A stretch of 32,191 nucleotides of DNA, from NCBI GenBank assembly GCA_027021705.1, contig JALUTT010000107.1, forward strand, positions 1-32,191. Direction: 5' to 3'. The notes under the pieces are model-generated. The model ran no database searches, was not told where the DNA came from, and saw nothing but the letters and a program-made list of their open reading frames with translations. The position numbers and the translations under genes are program-made. The stretch comes from Anaerolineae bacterium. GTDB lineage: Bacteria > Chloroflexota > Anaerolineae > S140-20. Shown piece after piece: positions 4,474 through 26,250 of this stretch (its first letter is position 1; every line of letters begins with the position of its first letter).

Positions 4474-4584
4474 GCACTCTTGTGATTCGGTAGACAACCT
4501 CCCCGCGCTCTACTCATAGGGACCTGATCCTATCTCCGGCGCCAAGAGTGCGTCAGAGCCGAAAGGCCCGTGCCCCAAGAACCC

Positions 4585-4613
4585 TTGCGAGGCCATCGGG
4601 AGCGTGATATAAT
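4585..4613 (+). promoter_or_regulatory. sigma70-type promoter for the uma2-thrC-MBL hydrolase genes
   Basis: TTGCGA-17 bp-TATAAT with an extended -10 TG at 4605-4606. Confidence 0.65.
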
Positions 4614-4722
4614 GGGATTAAGGGGGTTCGGCGAGCAACCTCTACACAGGAGCAAAGGCCATCCGGGGAGGAGCGTCCCCCGGCACTCCGGCCTTCTTGA
4701 CGGATGTGGGAGGGAGCAGGCA

Positions 4723-5466
4723 ATGGACAGGCAAGGGGAAGAGGCGCTTCGAATCTTGCGAGAGCCCGGCGTGCTGACCGACGACCTGCGCCGGGAGTTG
4801 CTGGAGCTGTTGGTCTTCCCGCCGGAGAAGCGCAGGATGACCTACGAGGAGTTCCTGGAATGGGCCGATGAGGACACCCTGGCCGAGTGGGTGGATGGAG
4901 AAGTGGTGATGTACAGCCCGGCTTCTCTCAAACATCAACAGATCGCGGGATTCCTTGCCCGGGTGATGGGAGCCTATGTGGAGAGCCGGGGGATGGGTAC
5001 CGTGATCCTCGCTCCATTCCAGATGAAGCTGGCCCGTTCCGGGCGGGAGCCGGATTTGCTGTTTGTCTCCCAAGAGCACCTGGGTAGGTTGAAGAAGACC
5101 TACTTGGACGGCCCGGCCGACTTGGTGGTGGAGATCATCTCGCCGGAGAGCATCGGCCGCGACCGGGGGGAGAAGTTCTGGGAGTATCAAGAGGCCGGCA
5201 TCCCCGAATACTGGCTCATAGACCCCAACAAGAGGTGGGCCGAATTCTACGCGCTGGGGATGCCGGAGCGATACCGCTTGGTGATGGAGGGCGAGGAGGG
5301 GGTGTACCACAGCCGTGTCCTCGAGGGGTTTTGGCTCCGGATTGAGTGGTTGTGGCAGGAGCCGATGCCGGCAGTCGAAGAAGTGCTCCTGGAGGTTGGG
5401 GGGAAAGCGTATGCCCGCCGCCTGATCGAACGACTACGGGGGCAGGGGCTCCTGTCCGAAGTGTGA
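4723..5466 (+). CDS. Uma2 family (DUF820) PD-(D/E)XK endonuclease-like protein
   Basis: MTYEEFLEW..EWVDGEV..SPAS..HQ, REPDLLFV, GPADLVVEIISPES..RDRGEKF..Y..AGIPEYWLIDP; start moved to ATG 4723. Confidence 0.9.
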   Translation: MDRQGEEALRILREPGVLTDDLRRELLELLVFPPEKRRMTYEEFLEWADEDTLAEWVDGEVVMYSPASLKHQQIAGFLARVMGAYVESRGMGTVILAPFQMKLARSGREPDLLFVSQEHLGRLKKTYLDGPADLVVEIISPESIGRDRGEKFWEYQEAGIPEYWLIDPNKRWAEFYALGMPERYRLVMEGEEGVYHSRVLEGFWLRIEWLWQEPMPAVEEVLLEVGGKAYARRLIERLRGQGLLSEV

Positions 5467-20826: not shown

Positions 20827-21132
20827 TTACCCCAGATCGGCCGCCAGGTCGGTTAAGTCCCGCTCCCGCAGCATCCGGTACTTCCACTTCTGAATCAGGG
20901 GGACGATGTAAGGGAGCAGGCGGAGGCTGTAGTAGGGGGGGAGAATGGGCACGCCCAGCAGATCGCCGAAGCTGATGAGGACGAAGAGGTGCTCCAGGTC
21001 CGCCCGCTGACGGCGGAAGTGGCGGACGATTTCGAACACCGTCATCCCATAGATGAAGCCGGCCACCCACTCCCCAACGGCTCTGGCCCGCTCTCGCCAG
21101 CGGTTGATGCGGCCTGCCGGAGTTGTGGTCAT
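20827..21132 (-). CDS. Small ArsA-associated hypothetical protein (paralog B of 24613-24888)
   Basis: RBS GGAAAGGAG; shares EHLF.LI..GDLLGVPILPPYYSLRLLPY.VP....WK.RMLRE.DLTD with the 24613 ORF. Confidence 0.85.
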   Translation of the reverse strand: MTTTPAGRINRWRERARAVGEWVAGFIYGMTVFEIVRHFRRQRADLEHLFVLISFGDLLGVPILPPYYSLRLLPYIVPLIQKWKYRMLRERDLTDLAADLG

Positions 21133-21211: not shown

Positions 21212-21868
21212 ATGTCCCTCGCTGCTCAGCGCGTCATCTGGGCCATCGCCATCCTGATGGCCCTCTGGTACGTTGGGGGGACCTGGTATAACCGCCGTCG
21301 TGGCATCCGCACGCTGACCTGGCTGCGCGAGGGCCTCCAGCGGCTAGGGGGTCGGCTAGAGATGGTGTGGATCGGTTCCGCCGCTTCGGGAGCCAAGGCG
21401 ATGGTCAGCAAGGCCAACCCGCCCTTCCGCCACCTAGAGGCTATCTTCCTGCTGGAGTCGCGGGAGATCCTTCCCCTCTGGGCGATCAACCGGCTGCGAG
21501 GCCGGCGGGATGAACTGATCATCAGGGCCCAGCTTCGCTCCTCTCGCCGAGGAGAGATCGAAGTGGTTCCGGCCGGCAGCCGGTTGGAGCGCTCGCTGCG
21601 GCGCGAAGAGCAGCCTCCCTGGGAGTGGGAGGAAGGCCCCCACGGGCTCCGCATTGCCCGCCGGGGCTCCCAGGGGAAAGCCCTCAGCCAGGCCGTCGGA
21701 GCCTTTCTCCAGGATTATGGCACCTCTCTCTACCGTCTCTCCTGGCGGCGTAGCAGGCCCCACCTCTTGCTCCACCTACGCCTGTCCGGGCTGACCGAGC
21801 GCCCGGCCAGCGATCTCTTCAGCGCCCTGCGCACAGCCCTCACCTATCCCCGTCAGGGTAGTTTGTAG
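21212..21868 (+). CDS. N-terminally membrane-anchored hypothetical protein, possibly CCDC47/DUF1682-like
   Basis: GAGG RBS; hydrophobic helix VIWAIAILMALWYVGG followed by a basic NRRR; family call by eye only. Confidence 0.7.
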   Translation: MSLAAQRVIWAIAILMALWYVGGTWYNRRRGIRTLTWLREGLQRLGGRLEMVWIGSAASGAKAMVSKANPPFRHLEAIFLLESREILPLWAINRLRGRRDELIIRAQLRSSRRGEIEVVPAGSRLERSLRREEQPPWEWEEGPHGLRIARRGSQGKALSQAVGAFLQDYGTSLYRLSWRRSRPHLLLHLRLSGLTERPASDLFSALRTALTYPRQGSL

Positions 21869-21943: not shown

Positions 21944-22435
21944 CTAGTGACAGCGCAGGTAGGGGATCGCCGCCAGCATCTCCTCGAACCCCTCCCGGGG
22001 GCATCGCCCGCTGAACTCCACCACCAGGTGTCGCTCGCTCACCGGACAGTCGAACTCCACCCGCAGGAAGGTGATGGTGTGGCGCCGGAAGAGCCCCCGT
22101 CGCCCCTCTCGCCAGCGCACCGTGGCTGGATGGCCATGGACGGTGACCTCGGTCACCTCCCCGACCGGAGCCCGGTTCCATCGCCGGGACAATGCCCCCA
22201 CCTGCAGCATCAATTCCATCGCCCAGCGGCGCTCGGCATCGAAGACCACATACCAGGCCCGGCCTGAGGCGACCCACTTCTTGCCCCCTCGCTCATGGTT
22301 GGCGATGACCTCCGGCCGCCCTACTCCGGGGGCCAACTCCCAGCCCGGCGGTAAGCCGAGCGAGAGGAATAGGGAATCGCCCAGCAGCAGGTTGCTGGCT
22401 GCGATGTCGTGGCGCACCAGATCGGTCGGCTGCAC
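21944..22435 (-). CDS. Hypothetical beta-rich protein, last gene of the arsA-like operon
   Basis: GTG 22435 after AAAGGAGA; LPPGWEL near the N-terminus, CPVSERHL, C-terminal YLRCH. Confidence 0.7.
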   Translation of the reverse strand: MQPTDLVRHDIAASNLLLGDSLFLSLGLPPGWELAPGVGRPEVIANHERGGKKWVASGRAWYVVFDAERRWAMELMLQVGALSRRWNRAPVGEVTEVTVHGHPATVRWREGRRGLFRRHTITFLRVEFDCPVSERHLVVEFSGRCPREGFEEMLAAIPYLRCH

Positions 22436-22593: not shown

Positions 22594-23574
22594 CTAGGCG
22601 AACATCCGCTCGGCGGTCTCAATGAGCATCGGCACCCCCTTCACCTCGGTGTCGAAGAGGGGGACGATGCTGCGAACCAGACCGTCGAACTCCTGCTCGA
22701 TGACCTCCATGTACTCGTCTTGCATCGCCACTCGGTTCAGCACGAACTCCGCCGCATCGGTTCCGATCTTCTCCTTGTCAATGACCATGTTGACGACCAC
22801 CCCACCCACAGGGATGCCGAAGTCGTGGAACCAGTTGATGAAGCGGCGGATGACGGCGATGGGCAGGGCCTCCGGCAGCGTGACGAAGAAGAAGGCCGTC
22901 AGTTCTGGGTCGGTCAGCAGTTCCTTGGCATGCTGCATGCGCTCTCGGAAGTTGAGGAGGTACTCCATCAGCGGGTCCTTCTCTTCTTTTTTCTTGCTGT
23001 AGGAGAGCATCTCCCGTAGGCTGCGGGCCTCCTCCCGGCTCTGCATCATCTTGTTGACCCAGAGGGAATAGACGGAGGACATCCCCAACAGACGACGGGC
23101 GTTGGCGGTAGGTGCGGTGTCGAAGACATAGACGTCATACTCGTCCTTGAACATGATGTCAATCATGTTCTCGAACATTGCCGATTCCTCGAAGGCCGGG
23201 TTCATTGTGGCCGACTCGATGAATTCGTCAGCCTTGGTGCGGATCTCGGCGAACTTGAGGAACCAGTCAATCTTCTCCCGGATCTCCTGTTTGGACTTCT
23301 CAATGGTCTCCCGGGTGTCAATTTCGTAAGCCCAGAGGTTGGGGACGCCTTCCACAGGTGTGGGGGCGCCAAAGACGTCTTGCTCCAGCATGCCGCTCAG
23401 GCTGTGGACCGGGTTGGTGGAGGCGAGGAGGGTGCGCCGGCCTCGGCGGGCGAAGCCAACGGCCGCTGCACCGGCCATCACCGTCTTGCCCACGCCCCCC
23501 TTGCCGCCGAAGAAGGTGTACTTCAACCGGGGATGTTCATCCAGGAATTGGGAGAGGGTCTTCTCGATGCGCAT
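22594..23574 (-). CDS. ArsA/Get3(TRC40)-family single-domain ATPase, subunit 2 (switch I D->N)
   Basis: GGKGGVGKT, STNPVHSL, DTAPTAN, VTLPE; no Cys. Confidence 0.9.
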   Translation of the reverse strand: MRIEKTLSQFLDEHPRLKYTFFGGKGGVGKTVMAGAAAVGFARRGRRTLLASTNPVHSLSGMLEQDVFGAPTPVEGVPNLWAYEIDTRETIEKSKQEIREKIDWFLKFAEIRTKADEFIESATMNPAFEESAMFENMIDIMFKDEYDVYVFDTAPTANARRLLGMSSVYSLWVNKMMQSREEARSLREMLSYSKKKEEKDPLMEYLLNFRERMQHAKELLTDPELTAFFFVTLPEALPIAVIRRFINWFHDFGIPVGGVVVNMVIDKEKIGTDAAEFVLNRVAMQDEYMEVIEQEFDGLVRSIVPLFDTEVKGVPMLIETAERMFA

Positions 23575-23577
23575 CGT

Positions 23578-24561
23578 TCACGCTCCGTTCCCAAACATGA
23601 CCTCGGCCATCCGCTCGATCATCGGCAGGCCGGTCACATCCCGCTCGAACTCGGGGATGTAGGCCAGCACCTGATCCCCAAAGAGCCGCTTGATCTCGGC
23701 GAGGTACTTCTGTTGCATCTCGTACCGGTTGCGCAGGTAGGCCGGAATATTGGGCTGCTGCATCAGGGAGTCGGGTAGCACCCGGTTGACGATGTAGCCG
23801 CTGAGGGGCACCTGATACTTGGCGAAGAGCCCTGCGGCCTTTTGCGTATCTATCAAGATCATCTCCTCGGGCACCAGGACGAAGAAGAAAGCTGTCCGTT
23901 CCCGATCGGTCAAGATGCTGGAGGAGGTGTTGATGCGGTGCTTGATGTACTGGAGTTCTTTGAGGATCAGGTCCTCTTGGAGCTCCTTGTCCCGGGCGTA
24001 GCGGGCTGCCATCTCCTCGTATTCCCGCATCTCCTCACGCAAGGCTGTGATCTTGGTGATCCATTCGTCGTAGACACTGGCCATGCTCAGGTAGTAGAGG
24101 GCGTGGCCCAGCGGGACCAGGTCGTAGATGTAGTAGTCGTACTCGCCGGCCACCACGATGTCCACGACCTGATCGAAGATGGCGCTCTCCTCCATCGCGG
24201 GCTCTGCCGCCGCAGCCCGGATGTAGCTTTCGATCTCATCGGGAATCTCGTCCATCCCGTACATATCGCGGATCTTCTGGCGGATTTCCTCCTGGTACTC
24301 TCGGATCCGCTGGTCGGCATCAATCTCCTGAGCGAAGAGATTAGGGATGATTTCAACGGCCCCCTTGCCGTAGATGTCCCGCTCGAAGATGTCAGAGAGC
24401 GAAGCCTGGGGGTCCACGGAGAAGACCAGCACTTTATGGCCCTGTTGAGCCAGGTAGTAGGCCGTGGCGGCGGAGAAGGTCGTCTTGCCCAGCCCTCCCT
24501 TACCGCCAAACATAATGTAGCGTCGTTCAGGGTTTTCCTCGAAAATGCGCTTGAGCGACAT
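23578..24561 (-). CDS. ArsA/Get3(TRC40)-family single-domain ATPase, subunit 1 (deviant switch II)
   Basis: GGKGGLGKTT, SVDPQASL, DLVPLGH, VLVPE, IVNRV; no Cys. Confidence 0.9.
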   Translation of the reverse strand: MSLKRIFEENPERRYIMFGGKGGLGKTTFSAATAYYLAQQGHKVLVFSVDPQASLSDIFERDIYGKGAVEIIPNLFAQEIDADQRIREYQEEIRQKIRDMYGMDEIPDEIESYIRAAAAEPAMEESAIFDQVVDIVVAGEYDYYIYDLVPLGHALYYLSMASVYDEWITKITALREEMREYEEMAARYARDKELQEDLILKELQYIKHRINTSSSILTDRERTAFFFVLVPEEMILIDTQKAAGLFAKYQVPLSGYIVNRVLPDSLMQQPNIPAYLRNRYEMQQKYLAEIKRLFGDQVLAYIPEFERDVTGLPMIERMAEVMFGNGA

Positions 24562-24612: not shown

Positions 24613-24888
24613 CTAAGCCAGAGCGTCGGTCAAGTCTTTCTCGCGCAGCATGCGCCGTTTCCAGGTGGCGATCTGGGGCACCACGTAGGGGAGCAGACGC
24701 AGGGAGTAGTAGGGCGGCAGGATGGGCACACCTAGCAGGTCGCCCATCGTGATGAGGATGAAAAGATGTTCCATACTTCCCCGCGTCTTCAGGGCCTGGC
24801 GGGTCATCTCGTGTGCTGCCATGCCGTAGATGAGGTCTTGAACGGATCGTTTGGCCCGTTCCCAGAGGCTGAGCTTCTCTTCGGTCAT
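24613..24888 (-). CDS. Small ArsA-associated hypothetical protein (paralog A), 91 aa
   Basis: ATG 24888 after AAAAGGAGG; similarity to the 20827 ORF starts only downstream of this ATG. Confidence 0.85.
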   Translation of the reverse strand: MTEEKLSLWERAKRSVQDLIYGMAAHEMTRQALKTRGSMEHLFILITMGDLLGVPILPPYYSLRLLPYVVPQIATWKRRMLREKDLTDALA

Positions 24889-25076: not shown

Positions 25077-25100
25077 AAAAAGCGGGGTTCGCCAACCCGC
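25077..25100 (-). terminator. Probable terminator of the pst-phoU operon
   Basis: Minus strand GCGGGTT-ggcg-AACCCCGC-TTTTT, 30 bp after the phoU stop. Confidence 0.6.
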
Positions 25101-25105
25101 ATTGA

Positions 25106-25134
25106 ATTATACTCCAAGGTTATGGTTCGGTCAA
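25106..25134 (-). promoter_or_regulatory. sigma70-type promoter pointing toward the arsA-like operon
   Basis: TTGACC(25134-25129)-17-TATAAT(25111-25106); the -35 overlaps the phoU stop codon. Confidence 0.6.
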
Positions 25135-25802
25135 ACCTCTTCCTCGTCCACGTCCATCTCGATCATCTCGCCCGTGACGGTGAAGATCACCCGTTCACAG
25201 ATGTTGGTCACCCGGTCGGCGGTGCGCTCCAGGTTGTGAGCCGCCCACAGGAGATAGTTGGCCTGTTCGATGGTGTGGGGGTCGGCCATGATGAAGGTCA
25301 TCAGCTCCCGATAGACCTGGTTGTAGAGGGCATCCACCTCGTCATCCTCTTCGGGAATGGCCTGGGCCAACTCCACGTCCCGCCGGATAAACGCCTCCAA
25401 CGCCCGGTGCAGCATATCCCGTGCCTTCTCCGCCATCCGGGGAATGTCAATGAGCGGCTTGATCAACGGCTCGTCCCCGATCATCAGGTTGATCTTGGCG
25501 ATGCCCTTCGCGTAGTCGCCCATCCGTTCCAGTTCGGTGACGATCTCCAACACCGCCGCCAGAGTGCGCAGGTCGCTGGCCATCGGCTGTTGGGTGGCGA
25601 TCAAGGTTAGCGCCTGGGCCTCCAGGGCGAAGCGCTTTTCATTAATTTGCCGATCGTTGGCGATGATCCGGCGCGAGGCCTCCATATCCCGCCGCTTGAG
25701 GCTGTCCACCGAGGCGGTCAGCGCCTCTTCGACCATGCTCCCTAGGACCAACACCTCTTCCTGCAACCGCTGTAGGTCCTGCTCGAAAGCTTTACGGATC
25801 AT
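25131..25802 (-). CDS. phoU: Phosphate signalling protein PhoU
   Basis: QQPMASDLR, ELERMGDYAKGIA, DDEVD, NLERTADRVTNICE. Confidence 0.96.
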   Translation of the reverse strand: MIRKAFEQDLQRLQEEVLVLGSMVEEALTASVDSLKRRDMEASRRIIANDRQINEKRFALEAQALTLIATQQPMASDLRTLAAVLEIVTELERMGDYAKGIAKINLMIGDEPLIKPLIDIPRMAEKARDMLHRALEAFIRRDVELAQAIPEEDDEVDALYNQVYRELMTFIMADPHTIEQANYLLWAAHNLERTADRVTNICERVIFTVTGEMIEMDVDEEEV

Positions 25803-26250
25803 CCGTCCCCTCCTCTCCCACAGAACGCTCGAACTGGTCCAGATAGCTCAGGATGCGCCGGCGCAGACCATCCCGCACCTCTCGGAAGACGGCCAGCCGC
25901 TGGGCCTCGCTGCCCGTCGCCGCCGCCGGGTCCGGGAAGCCGATGTGCACCCGCCGGCCGCGCCCCAGCCAGACGGGGCAGTTCCGGTCGGCGTCGTCGC
26001 AGACGGTGATGACCAGGTCGAACTGGGCATCCCGGAACTCGTCCACCGACTTGGAGCGCTGGGTGCCGATCTCCACCCCCAGCTCGGCCATCGCCCGTAT
26101 GGCCAGGGGGTGGACGTAGCCGGCCGGTTTCGTGCCTGCCGAGTGGGCCTCCCACCGGTCGCCTCGGAAGTGGTTGACCAGCCCCTCGGCCATCTGGCTC
26201 CGGGCCGAGTTGCCGGTGCAGAGGAAGAGCACACGCCCCTTGCGGCTCAT
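25792..26250 (-). CDS. arsC: Thioredoxin-type arsenate reductase (LMW-PTP fold)
   Basis: [27 protein letters not shown] (resolving Cys pair), FPDPA, FREVRD. Confidence 0.9.

Follow-up and report, generated by a model that had tools for sequence, protein, structure and literature searches.

Why should two adjacent genes encode ATPases of one family when one of the two lacks the residue that defines the active site? This question is raised by a gene pair on contig JALUTT010000107.1 of an Anaerolineae bacterium (assembly GCA_027021705.1), which was analysed over its positions 1 to 32,191, a stretch of 32,191 nucleotides referred to below as the window. The pair encodes two Get3/ArsA-fold subunits, S1 and S2. 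S1 keeps the catalytic aspartate of switch I, and S2 has an asparagine in its place. The same motifs are fixed in related loci whose records name about ten phyla. Our best reading, to which we assign a probability of roughly 60%, is that S1 and S2 form an obligate pair that evolves together, one site carrying Asp and the other Asn.

Switch motifs of S1 and S2

Both genes are on the minus strand, arranged head to tail with 3 nucleotides between the S1 stop and the S2 start (TGA ACG ATG), and their products are 36% identical. The genes and their translated motifs are given below, together with the number of related loci in which each motif was found.

23578–24561, minus strand: S1, Get3/ArsA-fold ATPase subunit of 327 amino acids with the switch I Asp (D50), putative hydrolysing subunit
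24478–24507, minus strand: S1 intradimeric (deviant) Walker A motif, GGKGGLGKTT (76 of 77 loci)
24400–24420, minus strand: S1 switch I, SVDPQAS, with Asp50 kept (codon GAC at 24412–24414; 77 of 77 loci)
24103–24123, minus strand: S1 switch II, DLVPLGH, with the changes T to L, A to V and T to L (76 of 77 loci)
22594–23574, minus strand: S2, Get3/ArsA-fold subunit of 326 amino acids with Asn replacing the catalytic Asp, putative ATP binder with poor or no hydrolysis
23479–23508, minus strand: S2 Walker A motif, GGKGGVGKTV, with the second Thr of GKTT replaced
23401–23421, minus strand: S2 switch I, STNPVHS, with Asn54 (codon AAC at 23413–23415; 80 of 80 loci)
23101–23121, minus strand: S2 switch II, DTAPTAN, with the changes G to A and H to N (79 of 80 loci)

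Both proteins are members of the family over its whole domain: Pfam PF02374 gives 246.5 bits for S1 and 225.7 bits for S2 (cutoff 24.3), and TIGR00345 (TRC40/GET3/ArsA) gives 237.2 and 222.2 bits, respectively (cutoff 135). Each carries the intradimeric Walker A motif GKGGxGKT with its signature lysine, as well as the invariant Asp of switch II (Walker B; D147 in S1 and D152 in S2). The catalytic Asp of switch I is kept by S1 (D50) and replaced in S2 (N54). A PDB sequence search identified 3ug6 as the closest solved relative of both (E-values of 8.4e-65 for S1 and 4.8e-54 for S2), with 3zq6 also near. At the aligned positions 3ug6 reads STDPAHS and DTAPTGH, and the same consensus is found in most of the 150 library representatives. 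Judged by its motifs, S2 is thus a member of the fold family without the feature that defines the active site. The CxxC zinc motif of eukaryote-type Get3/TRC40 is absent from S1 and S2, which contain no cysteines at all. A preliminary description of this DNA, made from the letters alone, had read the motifs of both subunits, the family consensus (STDPAH and DTAPTGH), the deviant Walker A in each protein and the lack of a Get3-type zinc-binding CxxC in the same way; direct translation and the alignments bear out all of these readings.

The motifs extend far beyond this genome. Scanning species-representative genomes yielded 531 relatives, and motifs were counted in the best 80 loci, which are 69–80% identical to S2; the S1 counts refer to the 77 of those 80 in which all three S1 motifs are readable. 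For S2, STNPVHS and GGKGGVGKT occur in every one of the 80 loci and DTAPTAN in 79, the other reading DTAPAAN, while the final residue of Walker A is V in 72, A in 7 and T in 1. For S1, SVDPQAS is found in 77 of 77 loci, DLVPLGH in 76 (DMVPLGH in the other) and GGKGGLGKTT in 76. Conservation of this kind is far beyond chance. The record titles of the 80 loci, which are submitters' labels on metagenome bins, name about ten phyla and include Chloroflexota classes, Acidobacteriota, Methylomirabilota, Binatia, several deltaproteobacterial groups, Spirochaetota, Nitrospinota, Gemmatimonadetes and Udaeobacter; some of the loci lie on contigs of 0.8–4.4 Mb.

Among 40 class-level genomes, an S2 orthologue was detected in 17 at 71–80% identity and in 3 more at 48–50%. 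The same switch motifs of S1 and S2 are present throughout 18 class-level loci (L013–L030, the window's own copy included). In three distant class-level loci S2 reads SLNPVHS, and in two of these S1 reads STDPQAS. Residues K21, G25, K26, T27, D50, D147, P150, G152, H153 and N259 are invariant in 18 S1 sequences, and N54, P55, H57, K25, T31, D152 and N262 in 22 S2-type sequences, including members that are only 42–51% identical. The distribution of the pair is patchy: in an even sample of the phylum, an S2 orthologue (E-value of 1e-80 or better) was found in 24 of 301 genomes. Whether the Asn and DLVPLGH are conserved in orthologues had been posed as a question in the preliminary description; they are, both in the 18 class-level loci and in the best 80 cross-phylum loci, so that the substitutions are not private to this genome. 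Further losses at the site occur in two representatives of the S2 clade, of which one has GKSSVGNT for Walker A (P0125) and the other SLSTLHS in switch I (P0154). These losses fit an S2 site that may not be needed for chemistry.

The residues that distinguish the two subunits have been characterised in homologues. Passages of one study name D57 as the catalytic residue of Get3 and describe D57N as binding ATP without hydrolysing it (PMC12506534), and passages of a 2025 cryogenic electron microscopy study present D46N/D364N as a non-hydrolysing variant of ArsA, in which the switch I Asp anchors the catalytic water (PMC12415280). As far as these passages go, the Asp-to-Asn change of S2 is indeed the one used to make non-hydrolysing Get3 and ArsA, as had been proposed. 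The ArsA passages also assign to switch II the link between the nucleotide site and the substrate site. Upon closure the switch II Asp remains near Mg, and the next four residues and helix 7 shift towards the nucleotide. In the open state Thr147 is hydrogen-bonded to helix 6. The two halves each contribute the His of their DTAPTGH motif, His149 and His453, to a stacking contact that spans the domain interface when the wild-type protein is closed (PMC12415280).

When S1 and S2 are compared with these assignments, S1 is seen to retain the P-loop, the switch I Asp and the Asp, Pro, Gly and His of switch II, that is, all residues known in catalysis. Its three changes (T to L, A to V and T to L) would map to positions of coupling in ArsA and not to known catalytic ligands. 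S2, on the other hand, would lack the water-activating Asp, the interface His and the second Thr of GKTT, and its kept P-loop fits a nucleotide-binding site with poor hydrolysis. From the sequences, therefore, S1 has the look of a competent site and S2 that of a naturally occurring D57N. The earlier wording, according to which the catalytic motifs of the two ATPases are reciprocally degenerate, was overstated: S1 keeps the catalytic residues, and GKTV, Asn54 and the His-to-Asn change are all found in S2. In a heterodimer, His153 of S1 would face Asn158 of S2.

Co-inheritance and descent of the pair

An adjacent S1-type gene is present in 19 of the 20 S2-bearing genomes at the class level, and in the remaining one the locus ends. 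Across phyla, an S1 sequence lies upstream of S2 in 80 of 80 loci; three of them are without a readable S1, two of these being contig ends and the third a locus (L077) that is considered further below. The distance from the S1 stop to the S2 start is between –14 and +40 nucleotides in 82 of 93 pairs, with a 4-nucleotide overlap in 24, a spacing that fits co-translation as a possible mode of expression.

The descent of the two subunits was followed in a maximum-likelihood tree of 33 single-domain sequences. The S1 clade (support 100/98) and the S2 clade (100/100) are sisters inside one clade (100/98), and this joint clade is set apart from the other single-domain ArsA-like representatives. One protein with canonical motifs (P0148) is weakly placed beside S1. 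The stem leading to S2 is longer than that leading to S1 (0.85 vs 0.45). Since S1 and S2 each hold the same two sub-clades, in mirrored arrangement, the pattern, as far as the sequences record it, is that of a canonical enzyme that was duplicated once, long ago, after which S2 went through a burst of change and both lines then descended in parallel.

To compare constraint on the components, we used the median identity to a reference locus (L062) in the 51 loci that hold all of them. It amounts to 81% for a small DUF7990 protein encoded next to S1 (the proximal copy), 75% for S1, 71% for S2, 52% for a distal small protein and 48% for the neighbouring permease CstA; in all 51 loci the conservation of S1, and likewise that of S2, exceeds that of CstA. 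Judging by the median identity of 71%, the P-loop kept in 80 of 80 loci and the invariant Asn262 of the adenine region, S2 is not decaying.

Candidates for a natural S1–S2 fusion were rejected, as the S2 matches in open frames of 635 and 679 amino acids proved to be stop-free stretches of high GC content that run over S1 in another frame. No fusion of S1 with S2 was found among the top 150 representatives, in which the fused two-domain proteins are 27–35% identical to S2.

A proposed asymmetric dimer and its alternatives

These genomic data lend good support to an asymmetric S1–S2 heterodimer, which the preliminary description had proposed as obligate, with one catalytic site and one nucleotide-binding pseudo-ATPase site; that proposal is thus borne out in part. 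In such an assembly S1 and S2 would be the subunits of one Get3/ArsA-fold ATPase of the intradimeric Walker A type, both would bind ATP, and each signature lysine would reach into the site of the partner. The S1 site would be the hydrolysing one because it keeps the switch I Asp, which positions the attacking water. The S2 site, as a natural equivalent of Get3 D57N and ArsA D46N/D364N, would hold ATP with slow hydrolysis or none, and might serve as a latch that holds the dimer together during cycling of S1, by analogy with the degenerate site of heterodimeric ABC exporters. DLVPLGH and DTAPTAN would then represent altered coupling and interface rather than altered chemistry. The pair would be expected to work with the DUF7990 small proteins and a membrane protein with a CCDC47/TtfA-like fold, in most genomes also with a CstA-family permease. 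It might couple ATP to the CstA-type transporter, like ArsA with ArsB, or it might assist the assembly or handling of membrane components, like Get3.

Several observations weigh against this heterodimer. In one locus (L077), S2 is intact but no more than 74 residues of S1 are left next to it; in another (L086), 1.7 kb holding an open reading frame of 378 amino acids is inserted between S1 and S2; and in a third (L103), S1 is split over two frames. Degenerate motifs need not mean an inactive enzyme: according to passages of PMC10248533, ATPase activity is found in Get3d proteins whose switch I is divergent and which have no A-loop, and NosGet3d functions with a Glu in the catalytic place. S2 is nearly as conserved as S1 and has a full P-loop, so that slow but real hydrolysis is possible. 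S1 itself may be unusual too, being off consensus at 3 of the 7 switch II positions, one of which corresponds to the Thr that bonds helix 6 in ArsA. Two homodimers acting in one pathway would also show adjacency and parallel descent. Finally, physical or enzymatic work on the S1–S2 pair was not found in the literature searched.

If S1 and S2 each formed homodimers, like archaeal Get3, and served two steps of one pathway, for example one for each DUF7990 paralogue, the asymmetry would lie between two complexes and not within one. The solved single-domain relatives that we found (3ug6, 3zq6 and Get3 entries) are all homo-oligomers, the partner proteins are duplicated as well, and L077 keeps S2 with only a remnant of S1. 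However, a homodimer of S2 would combine two Asn sites, and hence no catalytic Asp, with a perfect P-loop under strong constraint, while tight spacing or overlap and strict co-occurrence fit co-assembly in equal amounts better. Moreover, the adjacent Get3-like paralogues BagA and BagB of mycobacteria are deposited as one complex (6bs3, chains A and B). We regard separate homodimers as quite unlikely. Hydrolysis at both sites of a heterodimer, with Asn54, perhaps helped by a residue such as His57, positioning the water and S2 acting as a slower timer site, seems to us unlikely as well, if somewhat less so. It would agree with the activity of Get3d proteins with a non-canonical switch I, Glu included (passages of PMC10248533), with the two competent though unequal sites of ArsA, of which the N-site is more active than the C-site (passages of PMC12415280), and with the conservation of S2, which is almost that of S1 and extends to the P-loop and the adenine-region Asn. 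On the other side, Asp-to-Asn abolishes hydrolysis in Get3 and ArsA in the passages cited above (PMC12506534, PMC12415280), S2 has further replacements at the second Thr of GKTT and at the His of switch II, and in some representatives of the S2 clade the lysine of Walker A or even the Asn is gone.

A different identity, that of an arsenite-pump ATPase (ArsA) whose gene has been divided in two and which serves arsenic resistance, is suggested by the names "arsenite-transporting ATPase" and "arsenic transporter" in source records and by an ArsC-like low-molecular-weight phosphatase encoded 1.2 kb upstream (25792–26250, minus strand; TIGR02691, 125 bits). The score of that phosphatase is below its own cutoff (174.3), and its gene lies inside a pst-phoU phosphate cluster. 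S1 and S2 reach 98.5 and 105.7 bits with TIGR04291, far below the cutoff of 650; without any Cys they have no metalloid-binding triad (C113, C172 and C422); and they are encoded by two separate genes of about 327 codons each. Neither arsB nor acr3 nor arsD was found among the open reading frames of the window scanned against Pfam, and the neighbour is cstA in 58 of 80 related loci. We rejected the arsenic-pump reading on these grounds and consider it extremely improbable.

The preferred assembly, a heterodimer with one Asp site and one Asn site, was compared with known systems. The nearest in gene content was described in a comparative-genomic study without experiments (Castillo & Saier 2010; PMC2963123), parts of which report ArsA homologues of about 330 amino acids encoded with cstA, with CstX, a protein of about 90 amino acids with a single transmembrane segment, and in some archaea with CstY of about 210 amino acids. 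These parts mention adjacent pairs in cluster 15 (Symbiobacterium thermophilum and Pyrobaculum arsenaticum), place the association in clusters 14–18, state that the D of the SXD motif is replaceable by N alone, and propose that the ATPase energises CstA via CstX. The CstA-associated ArsA homologues are likewise single-domain proteins of about 330 amino acids without the ArsA cysteines, accompanied by single-segment proteins of about 90 and 210 amino acids, and by these features S1 and S2 probably belong to the cstA-cstX-(cstY)-arsA-homologue module. In contrast to the proposal made here, the pairs are not read as an asymmetric heterodimer in those parts of the paper (PMC2963123); in the window, furthermore, cstA is not adjacent. 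The preliminary description had taken no account of this study or of the gene surroundings, namely the two DUF7990 proteins, the CCDC47-fold protein and the cstA of relatives.

BagA-BagB of Mycobacterium tuberculosis (Rv3679-Rv3680; 6bs3, 6bs4 and 6bs5) are also two adjacent bacterial Get3/ArsA-fold paralogues, and have reportedly been described as interacting ATPases (Hu et al. 2019, Whitaker et al. 2020). Their similarity to S1 and S2 is weak and centred on the P-loop (E-values of 2e-5 to 3.5e-4 against 6bs3). Identity with BagA or BagB was rejected, as the scores are 43 and 46 for BagA (NF053622, cutoff 400) and 38.5 and 39.5 for BagB (NF053621, cutoff 521). The same holds for Get3d/NosAFP, for which NF050088 gives 45.7 and 73.9 bits against a cutoff of 325. 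ArsA of the E. coli type (1f48, 9nbl) shares with the pair the fold and, in passages of PMC12415280, two facing sites that are non-identical and unequally active, together with coupling through switch II. It differs in being one polypeptide of two fused halves (about 580 amino acids) with both catalytic Asp residues, DTAPTGH and the Cys triad, whereas S1 and S2 are encoded by two genes, have no Cys and include an Asn site. The archaeal Get3/ArsA proteins of Methanocaldococcus jannaschii (3ug6) and Methanothermobacter (3zq6) resemble S1 and S2 in length and in the absence of CxxC, but are encoded by single genes, have STDPAHS and DTAPTGH, and are homo-oligomeric. Get3 D57N and ArsA D46N/D364N share with S2 Asn54 the residue change and its switch I position; as described in the passages at hand, they bind ATP, stay closed and do not hydrolyse. 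These laboratory variants are engineered and symmetric, with both sites changed, while the change in S2 is natural, fixed and limited to one subunit.

Two further kinds of relatives were noted. A third ArsA-family paralogue of the window's own genome is encoded on contig C48 (L001, 1234–2511, minus strand; PF02374, 304.8 bits). Its motifs are STDTAHS and DAAPTAE, and it extends C-terminally about 85 residues past the ATPase domain. It matches the Get3d structures 3igf and 8egk (E-value of 4e-24) and may be of the Get3d type, with an alpha-crystallin-like domain at its C-terminus. Among fused two-domain ArsA-like proteins, five (P0168, P0173, P0185, P0187 and P0197) have one half with a degenerate switch II (MDLAPPGL or MDLSPPGL), to which P0168 adds an Asn in switch I (SVNPAHS), and another half with GKGGCGKT, S.DPQ.S and DTAPTGH. 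Judged by these motifs, asymmetry between halves is recurrent in the ArsA family, in a different combination.

What was known before comprises the Get3/ArsA-fold ATPases, their hetero- and pseudo-dimeric forms and the cstA module. In the literature searched we found nothing on asymmetry of the S1–S2 pair or on DUF7990, and only Castillo & Saier 2010 treats the gene association; a subunit in which the D-to-N change is natural and fixed is not described there and would be a new variant. Get3, ArsA and proteins related to them are studied as symmetric or near-symmetric dimers, and Asp-to-Asn is the standard tool for freezing them in the ATP-bound state. Nature has fixed the same Asp-to-Asn change in one subunit, under very strong constraint and in about ten labelled phyla. 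Should the heterodimer be real, it would offer a natural system with one hydrolysing and one latch site, parallel to the degenerate sites of heterodimeric ABC transporters, and would correct a widespread mis-annotation as "arsenite-transporting ATPase".

The surrounding module and its small proteins

The gene order of the cassette was determined in 100 related loci, some of which are cut short: one to three genes for small proteins are followed by S1 and S2. The window holds the following further genes of the module and its surroundings.

24613–24888, minus strand: proximal DUF7990 small protein of 91 amino acids (PF25952), which opens the cassette and in most related loci directly precedes S1
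21944–22435, minus strand: conserved open reading frame of about 163 amino acids (199 from an upstream TTG; start uncertain), downstream of S2
21212–21868, plus strand: protein of 218 amino acids with an N-terminal transmembrane helix and a globular domain, predicted CCDC47/TtfA-like fold
20827–21132, minus strand: second DUF7990 paralogue of 101 amino acids, 54% identical to the proximal copy

Read along the minus strand, the window has pstS-pstC-pstA-pstB, the ArsC-like phosphatase gene and phoU, then the proximal DUF7990 gene, S1, S2 and the frame of about 163 amino acids. Beyond the latter lie the gene of the 218-residue protein, on the opposite strand, and the second DUF7990 paralogue. 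At least two DUF7990 copies are present in 63 of the 100 loci (two in 55, three in 8). Most relatives have both copies in tandem upstream of S1, whereas in the window the second copy is displaced downstream of the cassette. In 58 of 80 loci a CstA-family permease gene (PF02554, E-value of 7e-64) is no more than 3.5 kb away, and 57 of these have it on the same strand. The only CstA gene in the window's own genome lies on contig C3, where no cassette genes were found within 5 kb.

PF25952 (DUF7990, as named by Atlas) is the precomputed family of the window protein and of all 120 relatives listed. Its near-invariant core reads HLFILITMGDLLGVPILPPYYSLRLLPYVVPQI.TWKRRMLRE, and the proximal copy is the most conserved gene of the module across phyla (the median of 81% in 51 loci given above). 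An AlphaFold2 model of the proximal protein has two helices at low confidence (predicted local distance difference test score, pLDDT, 63.9; predicted template modelling score, pTM, 0.27), and its maximal hydropathy in a 19-residue window is 1.59, at residues 42–60. With the cory-CC-star profile NF041419, the proximal and second copies score 33.8 and 34.2 bits at profile positions 16–71 of 80, where 80 bits would be required. Their C-termini read DALA and ADLG and not Cys-Cys, to which we take the name of the cory-CC-star family to refer. From its size, number of transmembrane segments and context, the proximal DUF7990 protein is probably the CstX of Castillo & Saier.

Homologues of the 218-residue protein are encoded beside the cassette in many related loci, often on the other strand. 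Its AlphaFold2 model, built from 15 sequences, is of high confidence (pLDDT 93.5, pTM 0.88) and resembles chains of endoplasmic reticulum translocon structures: 7tm3_4 (Foldseek E-value of 7e-8; VIA Z 15.3, root-mean-square deviation 3.6 over 214 residues), 9i78_4 (2e-6; Z 13.3) and 6w6l_7 (1e-4; Z 9.8). TtfA (6t84) follows with a Foldseek E-value of 0.15 and a VIA Z of 9.7, and the next row, which is unrelated, has Z 7.5. These chains were taken to be CCDC47 because the range of the 9i78 chain, 76–371, matches CCDC47 residues 76–370 (PMC12572126); the chains of 7tm3 and 6w6l would correspond to the same protein. A chaperone complex for membrane proteins is described as including CCDC47 (PMC12572126). 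At the sequence level, no Pfam family, that of CCDC47 (PF07946) included, gave a match even at E-values up to 10, and no CCDC47 chain was found when a profile of 15 homologues of the 218-residue protein was run against PDB sequences. The 218-residue protein, CCDC47 of the PAT complex and multipass translocon, and mycobacterial TtfA all combine an N-terminal transmembrane helix with a globular domain. The 218-residue protein is at most 13% identical to CCDC47 and TtfA and has neither luminal domain nor latch helices. TtfA serves the MmpL3 transporter as an accessory factor. Size, number of transmembrane segments and context suggest that the 218-residue protein is probably the CstY of Castillo & Saier.

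The predicted CCDC47-like fold keeps a role in handling membrane proteins open, beside the energising of a transporter, although a shared fold is not proof of function. One could imagine a prokaryotic machine for handling membrane proteins that is made of two DUF7990 hairpins, the S1–S2 ATPase with its latch site and the CCDC47/TtfA-fold protein; we put this forward as a speculative and doubtful proposal. Equally speculative is the mode of action it would imply, in which a Get3-like clamp would grip the core of DUF7990, which is invariant, hydrophobic and rich in Pro, or else membrane-spanning segments of CstA and hand them to, or regulate at, the CCDC47-like partner. If true, such a machine would join systems of the eukaryotic GET and PAT types in one operon of bacteria and archaea. 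The module of CstA, DUF7990, the ATPase pair and the CCDC47-fold protein is abundant and makes a tractable target for biochemistry.

The conserved frame of about 163 amino acids has homologues directly after S2 in three loci with a 4-nucleotide overlap (L031–L033) and in L065. It had no match in Pfam or NCBIfam, and Atlas gave as leads only archaeal hypothetical clusters and weak structural rows of the DcrB/PsbP-like kind. In the gap that separates phoU from the cassette (25085–25134, minus strand), a promoter-like TTGACC and TATAAT with a spacing of 17 nucleotides (11 of 12 matches; 25134 to 25106) and a terminator-like hairpin can be seen; such promoter- and terminator-like sites upstream of the cassette are no more numerous than in shuffled sequence, and no weight is given to them. 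A membrane protein of about 210 amino acids with tetratricopeptide repeats (PF13424, E-value of 1.3e-7) is encoded after S2 in 18 of 80 loci, for example at 4533–5162 on the plus strand of L093, and is absent from the window. The phosphatase at 25792–26250 (minus strand), situated between pstB and phoU, is of the thioredoxin-type arsenate-reductase kind and thus represents an arsenate-related gene within a phosphate-uptake cluster.

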